Part shown: piece by piece, positions 4,394-55,033 of the stretch
Numbering within the stretch: position 1 is the stretch's first letter
How the letters are laid out: every line of letters starts with the position of its first letter
DNA from: Naegleria gruberi
Lineage: Eukaryota
Reading direction: 5' to 3' (one strand)
NCBI GenBank assembly: GCA_000004985.1
Contig: GG738914.1
Length of the DNA: 64,000 bases
Position numbers and translations under genes: made by a program
The notes under the pieces: model-generated
The model's database searches: none
The model's input: only the letters and a program-made list of their open reading frames with translations
Told to the model about the DNA's origin: nothing

Positions 4394-4609
4394 TTTTTAT
4401 ATGTTAATAATAGATATTGACAACACTATTTATTCAATTTATTGTTTTTTTATTATTGATGTACATCATCCTTAATATGTAAATATGGAAGCTCCCTTTT
4501 ATGGACGAATAGGTGAATGCATCAGACAAATACAAAGGGGCCTAACTTTTTATCTCATCTAGATGATGGATGTGGAAAACAGAGAACCATTTTATAAGTT
4601 TAATATTAT

Positions 4610-6721
4610 TTAAATGTGCTTTACAGCCTTTATGATGAGCAAGTAAAGTCCAGATGCATTGATTCTTATATGACAATCTCCAGTAAGATTTTTTGGAACC
4701 TCTTTCATAGCTGTAACAAGACTTCCTTTAGCACTATCTGTAGGTTCTTTAACACACTCTACCAAAGAAAGGTATTCCATTAGGGAAACAACTTTGATAT
4801 TTGAGAAGGTATGAAGAACTCTCAAATTATAGTCAGTACATTGATTCGTTGCAGTGAAACACATTGGTGCATAGATTACTAATGCTCTTGGGTTATACAT
4901 GAACAATGAATAGTAAGAGTCTAATCCTTGATTAGTTATGAATACATCCATTACTGTGAAAAGTCTTATTTGCTGAACAACAGTCATATCGTCCAATTTC
5001 AAGTTCAAAATTCTAATACTTTCATATCTGTCATCAGGAATTCTGTGAGAGTTGACTTGCTGTAAAATGTCCTTGGCCAATCCACTTAAGTAGTCAGTCA
5101 ATTTATCAGCATTCACAATACTTTCTTTCTTGGAAGAATTAAGTATACCAATAATCAAAATCTTCTTTCTTCCTTCAAAGTAGCTTCTTGGAGGTACATA
5201 TCCCATTCCATTCAAAACGTAATCTCTGAAAACTGGAATCAAGTGATGTCTCTTTTCAGGTGATAGGAAATAAGAGTCAGGAGAACCTACAACCAAACTT
5301 GAAAAACAAGTGTCCAATTCCTCACCTTCCTTATCCAACGGTTTGGATTGAGCATTTCTCAATTGTCTACATGGAGCAAAATCAACATAGGTACCCTTCT
5401 CGTCATTATCACAAACTTGAAGAGGAAGACTAGATGAAACAAATGATCCAAAATCAATTGAAAGGTCTTCAGCCATAGATGCCTTTTCTAATTGTGCTCT
5501 AGAGAATTTACCAGTTCCATCATTGTGAACATCATCTAGGAACAAAATATTATTGTCATAATTTACAAACTCGTAATCGGCCATCTGATTAAACATTGGC
5601 AAGTAGTTGTTCATAACAAGTGATCCAACTTCTTCAGCATTATGTCTGAAAAATCCAAATGTTGGAGTGGAGACCCATTTGAAATTCTTGGCTAATGTAA
5701 TTGTGGTTGGATGAATTTTCTCAGGAGTCAAGTTTTCAGAGCCCTTATATAAAACAGATTTTGGAGGTGGTGCTATCTTTAACTTGAATTTGGCTGGAGA
5801 AAACTCTTCATTGTAAACAGAAGATGTAAAAACCCAAGGCCTTTCATTTGTTTCCAAAGGTTTGTTTGTGTAAATAATCCACTCTCCTTTTCTATTCAAA
5901 CAGATATTTTCAAATCTGCAGGTTGTAAATTGAACATCAGTCTTTTTAACACTATCCATATCCACATCATTCCTGATGCAATTGTCTTTACTCTCAAACA
6001 TGTAACTAATAGCAGATAGAGTTGATTTAGGAATTGTTGATACATCAATTCTTGCCTTAATTTCATTTTCCTTGTCAATGTAAAATCCAGGTTCACTCTT
6101 TTCTGGGCCCCTAGAAATAGATATCAAAGGTTGTGATATATCTGACTCTGATACACTAGTTAATCTCTTGTCGGAAGTAAATGTTTCCATAATCGAAGGA
6201 ACTTTGGGAGGATTATATCTGCTCAAAAGAGGGAAGGCAGTTTTACTAGAACCTGATTTCAAGCCACCAAAGAACACTCCCTTGATTTTAGATAAGGCTG
6301 TTGTTGGTTGAATGGTGTTCTTTCTCAACAAGGACAGCTTTTCCTTTGAATCTGATAATTCCTTATTAATGGATTCTTGGAATTGAGAATGATGGTGTTG
6401 GTCCAAATGCTCAAAAGAAGAACTAATATCCCTTTCAAAATCCTGTCTTTCAGCAACGCTACTGAAAAAGTACAGCAACATATTTAAGAAGAAAATCAAC
6501 AATGAAATATAAAAAACAACCTTGATGAAGAATACGATGGATCGTTTAGGTTGTAGGGCCTTAAATGTTTGTCCATTGTGATTAGCATTTGATGAATTGA
6601 GGGACTGGAAATGCAGTGATGACGTATGATTTGGTAGCGAATGATTAAGGGTTACACCAAATGGTGTTGAGGTGGATGGTTTGTTACTTGAATCAAGCAG
6701 AGGTCCCTCCGAAGAGAACAT
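4610..6721 (-). CDS. Type II membrane protein with a luminal glycosyltransferase-like domain (GT61/DUF563-like, EOGT/POMGNT2-type)
   Basis: N-terminal cytoplasmic tail, one TM (IVFFIKVVFYISLLIFFLNMLLYFF), then a large domain beginning C-R-F-E-N-I-C and containing GFFRHNAEEVGSLVMNNYLP, which recalls GT61 motifs. True ATG at 6721 (MFSSEG...); the track start at 6784 is TTG. Confidence 0.4.
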   Translation of the reverse strand: MFSSEGPLLDSSNKPSTSTPFGVTLNHSLPNHTSSLHFQSLNSSNANHNGQTFKALQPKRSIVFFIKVVFYISLLIFFLNMLLYFFSSVAERQDFERDISSSFEHLDQHHHSQFQESINKELSDSKEKLSLLRKNTIQPTTALSKIKGVFFGGLKSGSSKTAFPLLSRYNPPKVPSIMETFTSDKRLTSVSESDISQPLISISRGPEKSEPGFYIDKENEIKARIDVSTIPKSTLSAISYMFESKDNCIRNDVDMDSVKKTDVQFTTCRFENICLNRKGEWIIYTNKPLETNERPWVFTSSVYNEEFSPAKFKLKIAPPPKSVLYKGSENLTPEKIHPTTITLAKNFKWVSTPTFGFFRHNAEEVGSLVMNNYLPMFNQMADYEFVNYDNNILFLDDVHNDGTGKFSRAQLEKASMAEDLSIDFGSFVSSSLPLQVCDNDEKGTYVDFAPCRQLRNAQSKPLDKEGEELDTCFSSLVVGSPDSYFLSPEKRHHLIPVFRDYVLNGMGYVPPRSYFEGRKKILIIGILNSSKKESIVNADKLTDYLSGLAKDILQQVNSHRIPDDRYESIRILNLKLDDMTVVQQIRLFTVMDVFITNQGLDSYYSLFMYNPRALVIYAPMCFTATNQCTDYNLRVLHTFSNIKVVSLMEYLSLVECVKEPTDSAKGSLVTAMKEVPKNLTGDCHIRINASGLYLLIIKAVKHI

Positions 6722-10619: not shown

Positions 10620-10690
10620 TGCGTCGACCGGGAATTGAACCCGGGTCACGGCGATGGCAACGCCGTATTCTACCACTAAACCATCGACGC
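10620..10690 (-). tRNA. tRNA-Gly (GCC), 71 nt, no intron
   Basis: Reverse complement is GCGTCGATGGTTTAGTGGTAGAATACGGCGTTGCCATCGCCGTGACCCGGGTTCAATTCCCGGTCGACGCA. Acceptor GCGTCGA/TCGACGC; D-arm GTTT/GAAT; anticodon stem CGGCG/CGCCG with loop TTGCCAT (anticodon GCC); T-arm CCGGG-TTCAATT-CCCGG; discriminator A. Confidence 0.85.
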
Positions 10691-37675: not shown

Positions 37676-38752
37676 ATGGACAGATTTCTCACTAGTTCTG
37701 GTCACGAAAAGCATTTTTCTGGTGAGTTTTTTATTTTGAATTTTTGTGATGCTATTCCATTATATTAAAATCATCGGATCTAACAAATAGCTGAGGATAC
37801 AATATTTACTGATGATATCTGTGAGGAAATTTCATCATTTCTTGAATCTTTTTTCCTTCTAAATAATTGTTTATTAATTTCAAAACAATGGTTTCGAATA
37901 ATTAAAGAAAATGTGAAACATTCACTCAGTTTTGAGAAACAGATGAATTATCAAGCAAGTGAACAATTATTACAAAGTCAATTTTTAGGAAACATTATTG
38001 AATTGAGTTTTTCTAATCAGACTTTGACTCAAAGTGGTGTTTTGTCAAATGTTATCAAATCTCTAATTTTAATGAAAGAATTAATTACGTTGGATATTTC
38101 TTACCAAAAAATAGGTGATGCAGGATCGAATACAATTGGTCAATTGATCAAATTGACAAAACTTTATGTTTGTGGAAATGAAATCAGTAGTGAAGGAGCC
38201 AAGTCAATTGGTCAATTAAAAAATCTTACCTATCTCAGTGTCAGAATTAATCATCTTGGATCTGAAGGAGCCAAATCAATTGGTCAACTTGAAAAATTAA
38301 GAACACTTTACATTGCGCACAATCAAATTGGAGATGAAGGAATCAAATCAATTAGTCAATTGAAGGAATTAACAACATTATATACAGACTACAATCAAAT
38401 TGGAAGTGGAGGAGCCAAATCAATTGGTGAAATGAAACAATTAACAGAACTTGGCATTTCTGAAAATAATATTGAAGACGAAGGGGCAAAATCAATTGGT
38501 CAACTAATATATCTTAGAAAACTCTCAGCATCTCGATGCAGAATTGGTGATGAAGGGGCTGAATCAATTAGTAAATTGATTAATTTAACAAAACTCAGTA
38601 TTAACACAAATCCAATCAAAGATGAAGGAGCCCTCCACATTATTAAATTACCCCAACTGAAAAAGCTTGACATCACTCGGTGTAGTATTAAAAGTGAAGG
38701 GAAAAAAGTGCTCACCGAAATGAAACTAGTATTCAAAACTCTCTATCACTAA
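37676..38752 (+). CDS. F-box/LRR-repeat protein (RNI-like 24-aa repeats), 2 exons
   Basis: Exon 1 (37676..37721) is MDRFLTSSGHEKHFS. A 69-nt intron (37722..37790, GTGAGT..ATAG) leads to exon 2 from 37791, AEDTIFTDDICEEISSFLESFFLLNNCLLISKQWFRII (F-box-like). About 10 repeats follow of the form NLTxLxxxxNxIGDEGAKSIGQLK. The track ORF at 37913 starts on GTG. Confidence 0.6.
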
Positions 38753-38759
38753 AAAAGAA

Positions 38760-41223
38760 TATTTTACGGTTTTATGTTACTCTTTAGGATGGAAGGAAAT
38801 ATTGAGATACCTTCCAATAAATTTTCTTGATTACTTAATTTTTTGTTAAGAAAAAATACCCGCCAAATATTCCTTCCAGTTTTGCACAGAATTCCAACTT
38901 TTATTGGAAAATTAAAAAAGATTAAAATAAATTTGAAAAATGTTTATTTTTTATTAAAAAAATTTAAACGTTTATTAATCGAATGAACCCGACGGGTTCG
39001 TCCATTTGGAACGTCTTATTGAATTTTTAAGATTTTGTTGTATTGTTTTTGTACTCTTCCTCCAAAAAGTGAGAGGCCTCCTTGTATCTTGGGCCATTGT
39101 TCTTTGATAATACCTTGAATAGGTTCTGTCAGAATACCAAAGATATTCAGTTGGAATGAGTTTGGTGTTAATGTTTCTGTCCTCTCTGTGCTTAGTACTG
39201 GTTCGAGATTGGTATTTTTTTTGATTTCTTCAATCATCCAGTTTCTAGCTGAATTCATTTCTGGGCATTCTATGAAGAGGTGTTCTGTGTCAAGGTTTTT
39301 GTTACATGTTGGGCATTGTGGGTTGTCTACTATGAGGCTTCTTAAGTGTCCATTTATCATGAGCCTCCAGATTGAGTATTTGTGAGTTGGGGTGGTATGT
39401 TCTTTGAGGTACTTGAGATTTGTTCTGTTGATGAGTTCGGATGTTCCTTGATCGTAGAGCTTTTCACTAAGTACTCCTTTGATTCTACTTTTCCAAACTT
39501 TTTTCGAATTGGTGATAATTAATTGCCCTTGAGTTAGTAGATGTTGGGGTGTAATTCGATGTCCTATTCTTGAGGCTTGTTTGGCTTTCTTATCAGCGTA
39601 GTTATTTCCATCTGTTATTCCTGTATGAGCTTTTGTCCATTCGATGGATGCTTGAAGTTTTTTAGTGCTGATGAGGTTGGTAATTTCATCTTTGATTTGC
39701 TTAAATTGACCTTTGTAATTTGTGTTGTTAATTATTTTGACTGCTATTTCACTGTCAGTGAGTACCTTTGCATTGCTGTTTGGTGGTATGATGTGTAGTG
39801 CTGTTGTAATTGCTGATAATTCAGCCATGTTGTTTGAGTGGTATGAGTGGAGCTTGTATTTGTATCCTTTTGTAAATTCGTTGTTCTGAATGATTACACT
39901 GAATCCTACTTTGTTTTCTGATTTGGATCCATCAGTCCATATTGTGAATTCTGAGTAGGAGTATTGTTCATCTTTTTCCTTTTCCAGAAGTTGATGATTG
40001 GTGTTACATTTTGTTGTGGTAAGTTTGTGTTGTTTTAGGATGTAGTGGAATTTCTCAAATATGTTGTGTAGTTTTGTTTTGTTCGTGTTACAGTTATTAA
40101 TTCCGTACTGTACTGCTTCTCTGACAAGTGGGTTACTTGAGTGGAATTTGTTGATTAAGTTATTGCAAAGGATTGAGTTGGCTATGTATTCGAGGTTTGG
40201 AATTTCTAGTCCTTTTCTTTCGAATTGTGCATACATTATGGATGGTTTTACCTTTGCATCGATCTTCAGTGATCTTTTTAGGTTACCCCTTATTGTTGAG
40301 TCAATTGTTTGTAGGCGAGGATTGGAAATTGAATTTCCTCCTGCTAGATGGATAAAACTACTAATTGTCTTGCCCATTATGATTCTTTTGAGATTTTCTG
40401 GTTCTATCAAATGGATTGGAAGTATTTTTAGTATTTGTGTTACTCTAGCTTCTCTTTTGTCAATTTCTTTTGTGAAGAGATGGTCTTCTGTGATGTAGTT
40501 TCCTAATGTTCTTTGATTGGTTTGTCTTGGTATTAACGTATCGTCAAGCTTAACTGTGAAGTCTTTAAGGGCTATTCTTTCCGGTGTGACAGAAGTTATT
40601 GATTTAGAAGCATTGATTTTCATTTTGAGATTCCCTATCCATTTGTTCAGTTGTTTGAGTTTGGTATTGTGTTTCTTGTTGGGTTGTGTTACTAATGAGC
40701 AGTCATCAGCAAAATTAAGAGTTCCTATTTCTTCAATTTTGAATGATGGTGTGACAGGTATTTTCCAATTCTCGATTTGGTAATCTATTATAATTTGGGT
40801 GATTGTGTTATACATTAGTGGTGCTAGTGGACATCCTTGTGGAACACCTCTTGTTTTGGTGAGAGGGTTAATTAATATGTCATTCCATTCTATATATGCT
40901 TTGTGATTGCTGTATGCATTGATTATGAATGTAGTGAGATTTGGTGGGAATTTACAATGTTTCATAGCTAATCTAAGGACACAATGTTCTACACCGTCAT
41001 ATGCATTTTCTATGTCCAAGTTGGTGATTACAAATGCATTTGTTTTCTTGTATTTGACTCTTAATGCTTGGATTACTAGAATATGGTTGTTAACTTCTCT
41101 GTTGGATGTGAATGCTTGTTGTCTAATATTGATGTTATCTTTTGCCCATTTACCTATTTTCCTTGCTATGATGTTAAATAATAGTCTATATAGTGTACTA
41201 TTTTTTATTAAAAAAATGATCAA
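38760..41223 (-). mobile_element. 5'-truncated non-LTR (LINE) retrotransposon: RT, RNase H and a CCHC zinc knuckle, with a structured 3' UTR
   Basis: Minus-strand ORF 39016..41223 has RT motifs 0-C (…AFTSNRE…, DIENAYDGVEH, RGVPQGCPLAPLMYN, FADD), an RNase H block (TDGSKSENKVGFSVII...DSEIAV...KAHTG...NNYADKKAK), and a C-terminal Cys/His knuckle (CPTCNKNLDTEHLFIECPEM). There is no endonuclease or ORF1 part, and the RT fingers start at the ORF edge. The 3' UTR contains a perfect hairpin GAACCCG-A-CGGGTTC (38985..38999). The 3' boundary is not precisely defined. Confidence 0.75.
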
Positions 41224-42271
41224 TCAACAAGACAACATTTCTGCATCACCTTCTCTCACTAGCAATAACAATCATCAGAGACCAATCAGCACACCCGATG
41301 ATCGTCCAACAACTGTTAACATTCCATCACAAATTAGTCAAAATTCTAACCGACCAGTGGTTGCCCCAATTTCTTCCCAACAGCACAAGGATACAAAGTA
41401 TATTATGGTGGCTGATATTGCCTCTGCAAAGATTTTTGCAAATATTATGCACTGTATTTGTTCCGATAAGAAGAAGGAAGATGCTTGGGTGATTTGCGAA
41501 ATTATGGAGGAAGGAATTAAATTCTACATTCAAGACAAATCAATTCAAGGAGTTGCTAGTATGAAGAGGGATATTTTCCAAAATTATATTTATAATGGTG
41601 CAGCACATGCAAAATATTCATTCGAAATTAATGTACAAATCTTGATTCAATGTTTGATTTTATACGGAGCTAATTCATCACAAGGAACAATTGTGAAACT
41701 TTGTTATCCTGGTGTTGAAAATACATTATCATTACTTTTGGGAGAAGAACGTGTAGTAACAGATTGTAATATTAAGATTAGGCATGGAGCAGAACCTTTA
41801 GATTTTGAATTCAAAGGTTCTGAAGAAACATGTAAAATTGTTTTAAAGAGTGAAGTTATGACTGATGCTCTTTCAGAAATTGATTGGCTTGCAAAGACTA
41901 TGGAAATAGGTGTTGAAATGGATGTCCAAGAGCAAGGTGAGGACCAAGTTGCCATAACTTTACCAAAAGGAAAATTATTTTTCAAAACAGTTGATAATGT
42001 GATTGGATCTATGGATATTATTATTCCAAGTACAAATGAGGGTGTATGTTCCTTTGAGGTAAATCACACCCAAATGAGCGTATTTAAATTATCTCATATT
42101 CAACAAGCTTTAAAGGCTTTACCACATTCTGATAGAGTTTGTATTAGAATGAATGAACAAGGTTTACTACAATGGCAATTCATGGTTCGTGCAACTGAAC
42201 CAATAACCTATGTAGATTACACAATGCTACCAATTGATGCAGAATTAGAAGATACAGATTCCACCTTCTAA
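41216..42271 (+). CDS. RAD1: RAD1 (Rad1/Rec1/Rad17 family) checkpoint clamp subunit of the 9-1-1 complex
   Basis: YIMVADIASAKIFANIMHCI aligns to human YSLVASLDNVRNLSTILKAIHF. NVQILIQCLILYGANSSQGTIVKLCYPGVENTLSLLLGEERVVTDCNIKIRHGAEPLDFEF aligns to human NLTVLLDCLSIFGSS..GTLTALRMCYQGYGYPLMLFLEEGGVVTVCKINTQEPEETLDFDF. C-terminal RMNEQGLLQWQFMVRATEPITYVDYTMLPIDAE aligns to RTDNRGFLSLQYMIRNEDGQICFVEYYCCPDEE. The first in-frame ATG is at 41216; the track ORF extends 5' through LINE antisense sequence. Confidence 0.7.
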   Translation: MINQQDNISASPSLTSNNNHQRPISTPDDRPTTVNIPSQISQNSNRPVVAPISSQQHKDTKYIMVADIASAKIFANIMHCICSDKKKEDAWVICEIMEEGIKFYIQDKSIQGVASMKRDIFQNYIYNGAAHAKYSFEINVQILIQCLILYGANSSQGTIVKLCYPGVENTLSLLLGEERVVTDCNIKIRHGAEPLDFEFKGSEETCKIVLKSEVMTDALSEIDWLAKTMEIGVEMDVQEQGEDQVAITLPKGKLFFKTVDNVIGSMDIIIPSTNEGVCSFEVNHTQMSVFKLSHIQQALKALPHSDRVCIRMNEQGLLQWQFMVRATEPITYVDYTMLPIDAELEDTDSTF

Positions 42272-42834
42272 AATTGGAAATTAATGAATTATATCATTTA
42301 GATCATGTACGAATTAGTATGAAAATATCTTTTTTCAGCAACCATCTTTTTATTTTCATTGATAATGTCTAAATGAAAGGTGAAAGTAGAATTGAAATTG
42401 AATTGTGCAAACAATAGCAGTAGAAGCATTAATAGAATAGTATCATCAAACACACTACAGCAAACAATAAATAGTATGATAAATAAATAAACATCTAAAA
42501 AGTATTGGTTAATATTTCCACACAATGGTTGGTAATTCTTTTGTTGATAAAATGAATTGGAGAATAGGAAAGAAATTATTGGATGAAAAGAGTAGTAGTT
42601 GGGAATTTTGGTAGTGGTGGTATTAAAATTACTTCCAAACTTGTTGGAATTTTGGATGAAATATCGATTATTGGAGGATGAAAATAGGGAAGTGAACGGA
42701 AAGGTGGAGGAATTATGGTGTTGATTTGCAGAGTCGTGTATTCTCTCCTCTAATTGTTGTTGTTGATGATAATGATGACAATTATTGTCATCCATAAAAT
42801 TATTAGAGAGTGTAAACTTTCGCCTTTGCGTGAT

Positions 42835-43341
42835 TCAACAGATAATGCAAGACTTCTTTTGCTTGTAGAATTTGTCAATAAAATCAAGTTGGTTCTTGTT
42901 GATGGCTCCTCTTCTCTTCTTTCGGAGGAATTGAACTGCTTCTAATCCTGTCATGTTGCATCGTTTAATAAGTGCCAAAGCTACAAGAATAGGAGCTCTA
43001 CCAAGACCAGCAACACAGTGAACAGCAATACAAGGAAGATCATCGGAATCTCCTTCTTTTGGTGGGAATACTTTATCAACAAGATCCAACCAATCTTGGA
43101 TAACGTGCTTTGGTGGAGAAGAACCATCATCAAAAGCCCAATCAAAGAATTTAATACCTGCTCGTTCAACTACTTCCTTATCATAGGTTGCTTGGCAAAC
43201 TCTGACACAGTGAGTCACATTATTTTGTTTAAATTCCTTAACGTAAAGATGAATATTAGTATCGGATGGAGCATCAGAAATTAAAAACTTGATACCACCA
43301 TGTTCGATGAGAGATGGAGCGTTTGTGAGAGTTACTGCCAT
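42835..43341 (-). CDS. PRL / PTP4A-family protein tyrosine phosphatase with a C-terminal prenylation-type Cys motif
   Basis: Near-colinear with human PRL-1: FLISDAP..VRVCQATYDKEVVERAGIKFFDWAFDDGSSPP; CX5R active site VHCVAGLGRAP; ILVALALI; FLRKKRRGAINKNQL; polybasic region plus C-terminal SCIIC. ATG at 43341. Confidence 0.9.
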   Translation of the reverse strand: MAVTLTNAPSLIEHGGIKFLISDAPSDTNIHLYVKEFKQNNVTHCVRVCQATYDKEVVERAGIKFFDWAFDDGSSPPKHVIQDWLDLVDKVFPPKEGDSDDLPCIAVHCVAGLGRAPILVALALIKRCNMTGLEAVQFLRKKRRGAINKNQLDFIDKFYKQKKSCIIC

Positions 43342-53701: not shown

Positions 53702-53772
53702 TGCGTCGACCGGGAATTGAACCCGGGTCACGGCGATGGCAACGCCGTATTCTACCACTAAACCATCGACGC
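53702..53772 (-). tRNA. tRNA-Gly (GCC), second copy identical to the one at 10620..10690
   Basis: Identical 71-nt sequence on the same strand with different flanks. Confidence 0.85.
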
Positions 53773-53878: not shown

Positions 53879-55033
53879 ATGTCACTGATCACACCATCGA
53901 CCAATCCAACTCGGAATGCAATATTTTCTGATGATACTTGCCATGAAATTCTCTCCTTCATTGATTGGAAATTCATATCCACTTGCTCACTCATTTCCAA
54001 ACAATGGAATAGTATCGTATTAAATTATTCGAAATTGGCCATCAATTTTCAGAAAAGAAGTGAATTTTCAGGCTTTATCAAAAGTAAATTTTTACACTGT
54101 GCCACAACCATCGAACTAGCTAATAACGTGTTAGCTAAAAATCAGATTCACACCTTGCTAGAATTGAAAAATGTGAAAAAACTGTTCATTCCACAAAATT
54201 CACTTTGTTTGGAGGGAGCAACGATAATTGGTGAAATGAAGCAATTGACTGCTTTGGATATTTCATCAAATAGGATTGGAGATGGAGGTGCAATGTTAAT
54301 TGGTGGACTGAAGAATTTGATTACATTGCAAATTTATGAGAATCATTTAGGTCCTAATGGTGCCAAGTCAATTAGTGAATTGAAACAATTGACTATACTT
54401 GATATTTCTCATAATAGAATTAGAGATGAAGGGGTCAAATCAATTAGTGAGAAGATGGATCAATTGACTAATCTTGATATTAGTTTTGTTGGAATTAGTG
54501 AGAAGGGTCTTGTTCCTTTAGTTGAAATGAAAAATCTCAAAATTTTGGCATTTTACGATTGCCAACTTTCTACAAAGCAAGCAGAAACTATCAGCAAAAT
54601 GAAACAAATAACTGAGCTTGATATTTCGTATAATCTAACAAATAATGAAATATTGAAATCAATTGGTGAGATGAAGCAGCTTATCAAACTGTATCTTGTC
54701 AAGAATGGAATTACCTCTCACCAAGTAGAAATTATTAGTCAATTGAAACAATTGACAGTTCTTAATATTTCAGAAAATGAAATTAGAAATGAAGGAGTTG
54801 TATATATAAGTGGATTGAAACAATTGACAGAACTTGATATTTCAAATAATGGAATTGGATATGAAGGAGTTTTATCAATTTGTAAAATGACTCAATTGAC
54901 CAAACTCTCAATTTATAATAATCCAATTCCTGAAGAAGCACTTAGAATACTTGATGGAATGAAACAATTTAGACAATTAGTGACGGGAATATCTGCCTCT
55001 TACTATTTGAGCAGTATAGTTTCGATAAGGTAA
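53879..55033 (+). CDS. F-box/LRR-repeat protein (RNI-like repeats; same subfamily as the gene at 37676..38752)
   Basis: F-box-like CHEILSFIDWKFISTCSLISKQWNSIV; repeats of the form LTxLDISxNRIGDGGAMLIGGLKNL and IRDEGVKSIS. ATG at 53879. Confidence 0.6.
   Translation: MSLITPSTNPTRNAIFSDDTCHEILSFIDWKFISTCSLISKQWNSIVLNYSKLAINFQKRSEFSGFIKSKFLHCATTIELANNVLAKNQIHTLLELKNVKKLFIPQNSLCLEGATIIGEMKQLTALDISSNRIGDGGAMLIGGLKNLITLQIYENHLGPNGAKSISELKQLTILDISHNRIRDEGVKSISEKMDQLTNLDISFVGISEKGLVPLVEMKNLKILAFYDCQLSTKQAETISKMKQITELDISYNLTNNEILKSIGEMKQLIKLYLVKNGITSHQVEIISQLKQLTVLNISENEIRNEGVVYISGLKQLTELDISNNGIGYEGVLSICKMTQLTKLSIYNNPIPEEALRILDGMKQFRQLVTGISASYYLSSIVSIR

Follow-up and report, generated by a model that had tools for sequence, protein, structure and literature searches.

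How a retrotransposon comes to end inside the start codon of an intact host gene is the question raised by positions 38,760 to 42,271 of the stretch of Naegleria gruberi NEG-M DNA analysed here (the window: 64,000 nt of contig GG738914.1, assembly GCA_000004985.1, gene-dense and about 33% G+C; coordinates are those of the window unless a contig is named). In this region a 5'-truncated long interspersed nuclear element (LINE), i.e. a non-long-terminal-repeat retrotransposon, lies antisense to RAD1 and adjoins its ATG. Proteins of the RAD1/Rad17/Rec1 family are the subunit of the 9-1-1 checkpoint clamp that joins RAD9 and HUS1 in a heterotrimer. We consider it very probable that a young LINE left this truncated copy at the RAD1 ATG by target-primed reverse transcription and that the position follows from a preference for A7(T) sites found throughout the element's family. 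As an event the insertion is unremarkable; what is new is the family's target rule together with the way it coincides with start codons, and this is supported by few copies.

The element occupies 38964..41198/41199 on the minus strand (2,236 nt). A preliminary description of the locus had recognised a 5'-truncated LINE with reverse transcriptase (RT), RNase H and CCHC motif, antisense to RAD1 and adjoining its ATG, and this is borne out by Pfam matches, by motifs and by alignment to a full-length copy (L002, 5,573 nt). The span of 38760-41240 given there was too wide. Homology to L002 stops at 41199: in BLASTN, L002 3327-5573 aligned to window 41202-38957, and inspection of the junction indicated that homology truly begins at L002 3331 (window 41199), placing the truncation point at L002 3331/3332. 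The 3' boundary had been put about 200 nt too far out, since 38753..38944 (plus strand) is ancestral intergenic DNA between RAD1 and the leucine-rich repeat (LRR) gene upstream of it. This DNA is the presumed RAD1 promoter region, and a contig lacking the element (L001, described below) runs from it straight into RAD1. Over 2,243 nt the window copy and L002 differ by 16 mismatches and no gaps (99.3% identity), of which nine in coding sequence are synonymous and seven nonsynonymous.

What remains of the second open reading frame (ORF2) lies at 39016..41199 on the minus strand, is uninterrupted up to its stop codon (39016-39018) and corresponds to amino acids 501-1227 of the 1227-aa full-length ORF2. 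The ORF listing contains a longer minus-strand frame of 735 aa (39016..41223), as the preliminary description had noted; this frame exists, but its last 24 nt (41200-41223) consist of target-site duplication and antisense RAD1 codons. In Pfam, amino acids 9-211 of the 735-aa frame matched RVT_1 (E 1.5e-21) beginning at profile position 16, indicating that the RT domain lacks its N-terminal part, and amino acids 425-551 matched RNase_H (E 4e-17). The RT remainder maps to 40591-41199, with the active site FADD at 40702-40713, and RNase H to 39571-39951. In the C-terminal part of ORF2 a CCHC motif of the form CX2CX7HX4C (CPTCNKNLDTEHLFIEC) lies at 39265-39315, and its motif residues are invariant in an alignment of four Naegleria elements. 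The 52-nt 3' untranslated region (UTR; 38964..39015, minus strand) contains an AATAAA signal (reverse complement of 38971-38976) and ends in ...AATAAACGTTTAA without poly(A), identically to the 3' ends of L002 and of L004. L004 is a second assembly of L002's sequencing run and contains the same element (99.9% identical).

Both ends of the element adjoin a perfect copy of one 19-nt sequence, TATTTTTTATTAAAAAAAT. The left copy (38945..38963) borders the element's 3' end and the right copy (41199..41217) its 5' end, where it provides the A and the T of the RAD1 ATG. The duplication has an unambiguous core of 17 nt (38946-38962), and its outermost base at either end could be the element's own, giving a length of 17-19 nt, and under either boundary choice the priming nick falls inside the RAD1 ATG (A^TG or AT^G). 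Two identical tRNA genes aside, this is essentially the only repeated exact 19-mer in the window, and its occurrence on both flanks of the element is therefore not attributable to chance. A repeat scan of the window found no long direct or inverted repeats flanking the copy.

The corresponding site without the element is present on L001 (ENA ERZ929261), a 1,887-nt metagenome contig that encodes an identical 351-aa RAD1 protein. L001 60-1887 matches window 41201-43026 at 99.2% identity, and L001 1-76 matches window 38889-38962, on the far side of the LINE, at 92% identity. The two matches overlap by 17 nt and there is no LINE between them or elsewhere in L001, which carries the duplicated sequence once, in slightly different form and with ATGATCAATC immediately after it. 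The RAD1 coding sequences of L001 and the window differ at four synonymous and no nonsynonymous positions, and the 755 nt downstream of RAD1 at eight, i.e. the L001 lineage and NEG-M have diverged by 0.4-1% in this region. Because L001 represents an empty site in a near-identical lineage, the sequence comparison supports a recent, strain-polymorphic insertion; because the empty site already has the T-run, the T-run at RAD1 belonged to the target. The full-length element is present in the same metagenome sample as the empty-site contig. The preliminary description had offered two alternatives, that RAD1 is driven from within the element or by read-through, or that the insertion is recent and possibly disruptive, of which the second is supported; it had also named further copies, a target-site duplication and an empty site as things to look for. 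All three were found: the perfect 19-mer at both ends, a single copy of it without a LINE in a 99.2%-identical strain, and further copies of the element that reveal its full length.

These further copies also define the family. A 1227-aa relative recovered by a protein search (P0001, 99% identical) is the ORF2 of L002, where it is preceded by a 462-aa ORF1 without a significant Pfam match. The full-length element, at least 5.2 kb long, thus consists of ORF1 and an ORF2 with the order apurinic/apyrimidinic (APE) endonuclease, RT, RNase H and CCHC motif. The endonuclease match of P0001 is weak (amino acids 27-221 to PF03372, Exo_endo_phos, 25.0 bits against a cut-off of 24.5), its RVT_1 match is strong (E 5e-26), RNase_H is also present, and the endonuclease family PF14529 was found in related elements. 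The window copy has no endonuclease because of its 5' truncation. With its initial 3.3 kb missing, which would hold ORF1, endonuclease and the beginning of RT, this copy was dead on arrival, and the fact that its frame is still uninterrupted fits a young age. At least three NEG-M gene models (NAEGRDRAFT_47408, _48056 and _53468) and two 1227-aa copies share 98.5-99.8% amino-acid identity (98.5-99.3% for the gene models), and the family is young and probably still active. Searches for more copies yielded little: the 3' UTR, used as an exact pattern, had no match in JGI metagenomes, a profile scan of metagenomes gave two loci only (22% identity), and a scan of bacterial and archaeal genomes and viral contigs gave none. 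The nearest named matches outside Naegleria in the protein search were arthropod proteins at about 22% identity (E 1e-11 to 1e-14).

The gene beside the element appears complete. The RAD1 coding sequence (41216..42271, plus strand) specifies 351 aa, matches the Pfam profile Rad1 (PF02144) from position 2 to 257 of 257 (E 1.1e-43) and is thus intact, as originally described. Its product is 100% identical to NAEGRDRAFT_53469, which starts at the same ATG on a 233,110-nt scaffold. Orthologues from N. lovaniensis, Willaertia magna and two further assemblies are 51-65% identical, and in the alignment all four have 50-100 residues ahead of the Rad1 domain. The low-complexity N-terminal extension of about 55 aa in the preliminary description is accordingly present, but it measures 63 aa and is partly conserved. 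The motif PSQ(I/T)SQxS(N/T)R and other residues upstream of the second methionine are common to all four orthologues, so translation begins upstream of codon 37. This conserved N-terminus speaks against a start at Met64, a later start having been considered as the case in which the LINE would simply lie upstream of the gene (the motif, in the form PSQISQxSNR, precedes Met64 in N. lovaniensis, Willaertia and both further orthologues), and the alignment supports a start at or near the ATG at 41216.

Outside the LINE antisense sequence, 41216 is the sole in-frame ATG upstream of codon 37. The reference gene model uses this ATG, which the preliminary description had taken as the first; nevertheless, the RAD1 frame is open on the plus strand back to 40907, adding 103 codons (40907-41215) of LINE antisense sequence with further in-frame ATGs at 40925, 41012, 41132, 41168 and 41171. 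From these, transcripts starting inside the element could encode an N-terminally extended RAD1. That this frame is open probably just reflects the T-rich antisense strand. The region stands out in its composition, with an AT skew of -0.32 to -0.38 across 39-41 kb of the window and 43.5% A in the element's sense strand, and A-rich sense strands are common among LINEs; because of this composition the antisense strand is poor in stop codons, and we do not regard the 103-codon extension as meaningful, given that several other antisense ORFs of 60-145 aa occur in the same element.

We compared the 3' ends of all retrievable related elements (n = 8) for a target preference. All eight end in ...AATAAA plus 8-15 nt, without poly(A), and are followed directly by a target-derived A+T-run. 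In six of them this run is A+T7, namely in the window copy, L004, L005 (35% amino-acid identity to the window ORF), L006 (52%), L009 from N. fowleri (41%) and L010 from N. lovaniensis (39%). L011 from N. fowleri is followed by A+T5 and L003 (70% nucleotide identity) by ATATTTT. The 8-mer concerned (ATTTTTTT/AAAAAAAT) occurs 24 times on both strands of the 64-kb window, or about 2e-4 per position. In the literature (Repbase lay outside the scope of this search) we found no published description of this LINE family or of its target preference, and no account of the target sites of Naegleria LINEs or of the length of 5' UTRs.

Where both ends of a copy could be resolved, the duplications place the insertions more precisely. 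In three of the four copies with a verifiable duplication (the window copy, L009 and L006) the nick lies at AAAAAAAT^G of a host start codon. The 13-nt duplication of L009, ATTTTTTTCATGC (positions 4549 and 8341 of its contig), overlaps with its 5' copy the start codon (reverse-complement CAT, 4548-4550) of an annotated host gene of 1923 aa, and the 15-nt duplication of L006, ATTTTTTTGTTTTAA (223 and 2741), adjoins the ATG of an ORF with 74 open codons before the contig ends. The fourth, the 15-nt duplication of L010, TTTTTTTGTTCTATT (4180 and 8618), lies at an A7 run that is no start codon, with a mitofilin gene following 40-55 nt downstream. In L002 a reverse-complement ATG with A10 in front of it is found about 15-17 nt from the 5' end of the element. 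This ATG opens a 132-codon ORF (L002 3-398, minus strand) that runs to the contig end, head-to-head with the element, and may be a strain-specific gene or no gene; because this flanking ORF is without a homologue, L002 does not count as a verified start-codon insertion.

The frequency of such sites in the window bears on how the coincidence with start codons is to be read. Outside the element the window has 39 runs of at least seven A; TG comes next after 12 of them, and each of these 12 begins an ORF of 99 aa or more; among the native A7T sites of the window, 12 of 22 are such starts. With the window counts as expectation, the binomial probability of finding at least three of four insertions at ATGs is about 0.09 (p = 0.31) or about 0.39 (p = 0.55). 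Three of four insertions at ATGs are thus compatible with a preference for A-runs alone, and no special recognition of start codons is needed. The LINE apparently came to stand at the RAD1 start codon since the family nicks after A7 runs and such runs often directly precede N. gruberi ATGs; judged from these junctions, its position is probably not due to chance. Many other ORFs of the window likewise have A7-10 directly before their ATG, e.g. those at 6721(-), 9121, 11554, 20783(-), 28033(-), 28347, 31720 and 52255, and a translation context or an initiator-like promoter element are candidate roles for these runs.

The insertion bears the hallmarks of target-primed reverse transcription. Under the mechanism that we propose, the priming nick was made in the sense strand of RAD1 right after the A-run, ...TTATTAAAAAAA(T)^G, within the start codon. 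Target-primed reverse transcription from this nick would have inserted the 5'-truncated, dead-on-arrival copy, and a second-strand nick 17-19 nt upstream of the priming nick would have led to a duplication that re-created the ATG on the RAD1 side. Because the duplicated stretch is the one 5' of the nick, the ATG was rebuilt and the RAD1 reading frame is untouched. With the sense strand of the gene as primer strand, the element has to lie antisense to that gene, so that a preference for nicking after A7(T) would explain both the position at RAD1 and the forced antisense orientation. In N. gruberi such a preference would mostly select the A-rich context 5' of start codons. It could stem from the specificity of the endonuclease or from annealing of an A-run primer to a U-run in the element transcript, with the U-run deriving from read-through into the T-run flanking the donor copy. 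A poly(A) tail offers no pairing partner to an A-run primer. With the AATAAA signal 8-15 nt before the end of the element, transcripts probably reach the flanking T-run, and the resulting U-run could anneal to the A-run of a new target and fix the point where reverse transcription begins.

Several other explanations of the locus have to be weighed against this insertion by A-run preference. That the RT/RNase H frame is a host gene, or the junction an assembly artefact, would agree with its annotation as protein-coding (amino acids 283-735 of the minus-strand frame are 100% identical to NAEGRDRAFT_53468, P0035, annotated as 'ribonuclease H' with a gene model at 39016-40377) and with its 735 uninterrupted codons. 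Yet the site is empty in another strain, the 19-nt duplication is perfect, several near-identical copies of this multi-copy repeat exist elsewhere, the frame has neither endonuclease nor the N-terminal part of RT, and its sequence matches, at 99.3% identity, the 3' part of a longer element equipped with endonuclease and ORF1; a chimeric join, moreover, would not yield a duplication matching the empty allele. We regard this possibility as negligible. It is also improbable, if less extremely so, that the adjacency to the RAD1 ATG is mere chance, resulting from near-random insertion into the AT-rich intergenic DNA of a compact genome with spacers of about 200 nt. Spacers are indeed short (the ancestral one between the LRR gene and RAD1 measured 209 nt from the LRR stop at 38752 to the RAD1 ATG), L010 lies about 40-55 nt upstream of its gene and away from the ATG, and resolved copies are few, but near-random insertion would hardly place exactly A+T7, the 8-mer of that low frequency, after six of eight 3' junctions, or let three independent duplications end on the same two start-codon bases. 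The family might instead recognise, beyond A-runs, the regions where translation starts, for example by way of chromatin or a factor associated with initiation. Three of four resolved copies at an A7-ATG would fit this idea, as would L002 as a probable fourth with its 5' end near an ATG preceded by A10; against it, choice of A-runs alone suffices when 31% of runs of at least seven A and 55% of A7T sites are start codons, and L010 sits at an A-run without an ATG. We therefore think start-region recognition unlikely, without dismissing it as firmly as chance.

A different matter is whether the insertion affects RAD1. Only 17 nt of native leader, from the right copy of the duplication, are left before the gene, and its former 209-nt upstream region is now 2.2 kb away, beyond the antisense LINE fragment. 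We infer from this arrangement that the RAD1 allele on this haplotype would be weakened or silenced unless transcription starts in the retained leader or in the LINE antisense sequence. It is conceivable, if on balance rather doubtful, that RAD1 on this haplotype is still expressed normally and the insertion near-neutral, with the start or core promoter lying in the 17-nt leader or the first codons, or with a cryptic promoter in the LINE antisense strand. Normal expression would be in keeping with the intact RAD1 ORF and its lack of nonsynonymous differences from the empty allele, with the comparable insertion at an intact 1923-aa gene in N. fowleri, and with the absence of AATAAA from the plus strand across the element, which makes read-through possible as well. 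However, a read-through leader would bear 53 upstream ATGs, and with so young an insertion no decay of RAD1 would be visible yet. N. gruberi repeats accumulate 5-methylcytosine, younger transposable-element insertions more so than older ones, and 5-methylcytosine-rich regions coincide with H3K9me3 and H3K27me3 (PMC12344493), which on a young element such as this one would tend to silence its surroundings. The supplements of that paper have no entry for RAD1 or the adjoining LINE gene model. Because Naegleria is described as mainly heterozygous diploid (PMC9928731), an intact RAD1 homologue in NEG-M is plausible.

Several points weigh against our interpretation as a whole. The T-run is shorter in L011 and interrupted in L003, only four insertions have both ends resolved, and one of these (L010) lies away from a start codon. 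L002 and L004 were assembled from short reads and may each combine several copies, their flanks cannot be paired into a duplication, and the 132-codon ORF flanking L002 has no homologue in the protein collection, NEG-M included. Endonuclease specificity and U-run annealing are both hypothetical and indistinguishable here. The metagenome sample behind the empty-site contig is undescribed, and the contig could represent a sister lineage rather than the same population (literature searches on PRJEB11402, ERR1078381 and the two locus tags returned nothing), and four synonymous against no nonsynonymous differences are too few to demonstrate continued constraint on RAD1. The effect on RAD1, finally, is inferred from sequence. 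A more far-reaching version of the proposal appears fairly unlikely to us, namely that the Naegleria LINE clade homes to the A-run 5' of ATGs, nicks inside the ATG and rebuilds it, that positioning by a U-run replaces poly(A), and that the genes survive through a core promoter or start within a leader of about 11-17 nt.

We compared the family with known retrotransposons. Human L1 inserts by target-primed reverse transcription after its APE endonuclease nicks at 5'-TTTT/AA-3'. The Naegleria family is similar to L1 in its APE endonuclease and RT, in frequent 5' truncation, in duplications of 13-19 nt and in a short homopolymer-rich primer site. In contrast to L1, its primer strand ends in an A-run and not a T-run, its genomic copies are without poly(A), its ORF2 contains RNase H, and the site it prefers, at about 7-8 nt, is longer and falls in the sequence context of host start codons. 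LINE clades with RNase H include the Drosophila I factor, LOA, Tad1 and the trypanosomatid ingi/L1Tc, the last of which are also found in Discoba and have insertion-site sequence preferences. The order APE-RT-RNase H, the C-terminal CCHC-type motif, the separate ORF1 and the lack of a long poly(A) are shared with these clades. The architecture thus resembles that of the I/LOA/Tad1/ingi group, a likeness judged by domain content. The I factor ends in TAA repeats, whereas the Naegleria family ends in ...AATAAA(N8-15) set directly against the target T-run.

Precise 3' junctions without poly(A) and the same short sequence after each element recall R2 and R1. For R2, 3'-flanking target sequence in the transcript has been proposed to help position reverse transcription, and annealing of read-through flank RNA might, hypothetically, be another shared feature. 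Unlike the single-gene sites of R2 and R1, the Naegleria target is a generic A-run present thousands of times per genome, and its endonuclease is of the APE type, that of R2 being restriction-like. The Dictyostelium TRE5/TRE3 elements are position-specific near tRNA genes, which are regarded as safe sites. Both they and the Naegleria elements are LINEs that occupy non-random positions with respect to genes, in protists with gene-dense genomes; the Naegleria elements differ in landing between host promoters and start codons, a site that looks hazardous rather than safe. This tendency is the opposite of the safe-site strategies of other compact protist genomes.

For the N. gruberi genome, NAEGRDRAFT_53468 ('ribonuclease H') is to be annotated as a dead LINE fragment and not as a host gene, and the reference RAD1 allele bears an insertion that is missing from a near-identical strain. 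Silencing of this allele, if it occurs, could leave the standard laboratory strain hemizygous for, or deficient in, a subunit of the checkpoint clamp; in any case the locus is a natural experiment in how little upstream sequence suffices for a Naegleria gene. In N. fowleri, FDP41_003890 (L009 5001-8459) is likewise a LINE ORF2 fragment modelled as a host gene, and the model runs about 120 nt beyond the element's true 3' end (8340) into the flank.

The 3' UTR of the window copy contains a palindrome (gaacccgacgggttc, 38985-38999) with a 6-bp stem and a 3-nt loop (GAACCC-GUC-GGGUUC). The preliminary description had listed it as a perfect hairpin; it is real as sequence, but its folding energy of -14 kcal/mol is not unusual (z -1.5; 14 of 200 shuffles fold as well). 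The GAACCC-N3-GGGUUC stem is identical in L002 and L004 and is kept in the 70%-identical L003 with one loop base altered; comparison with these three elements gave no covariation in the stem. We therefore do not treat the hairpin as a statistically backed structure. The conserved stem may be a candidate recognition element for RT.

The upstream neighbour of the element is an ORF at 37913..38752 (plus strand) for an LRR protein (LRR_6/RNI-like; LRR_6 E 1.6e-31), whose listed GTG start is mechanical. The spacer between this gene and RAD1 is 92% identical between the strains, with indels in A/T runs, as against 99.2% for RAD1 and its downstream sequence; this suggests, in a small sample, that homopolymer-rich spacers turn over fast. 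Downstream of RAD1, a low-complexity ORF of 165 aa without a Pfam match (42298-42795, minus strand), also called as a gene on L001, is followed by a PRL-like dual-specificity phosphatase whose last residues are the CAAX-like CIIC (42835-43341, minus strand). Elsewhere in the window, two tRNA-Gly(GCC) genes (10620-10690 and 53702-53772, minus strand) are 100% identical over a distance of 43 kb and account for nearly all of its exact long repeats. Periodic repeat arrays with a unit of 72 nt (24 aa) at 38051-38649 and 54215-54960 encode LRR_6/RNI-like proteins, the first of them being the gene upstream of the LINE.

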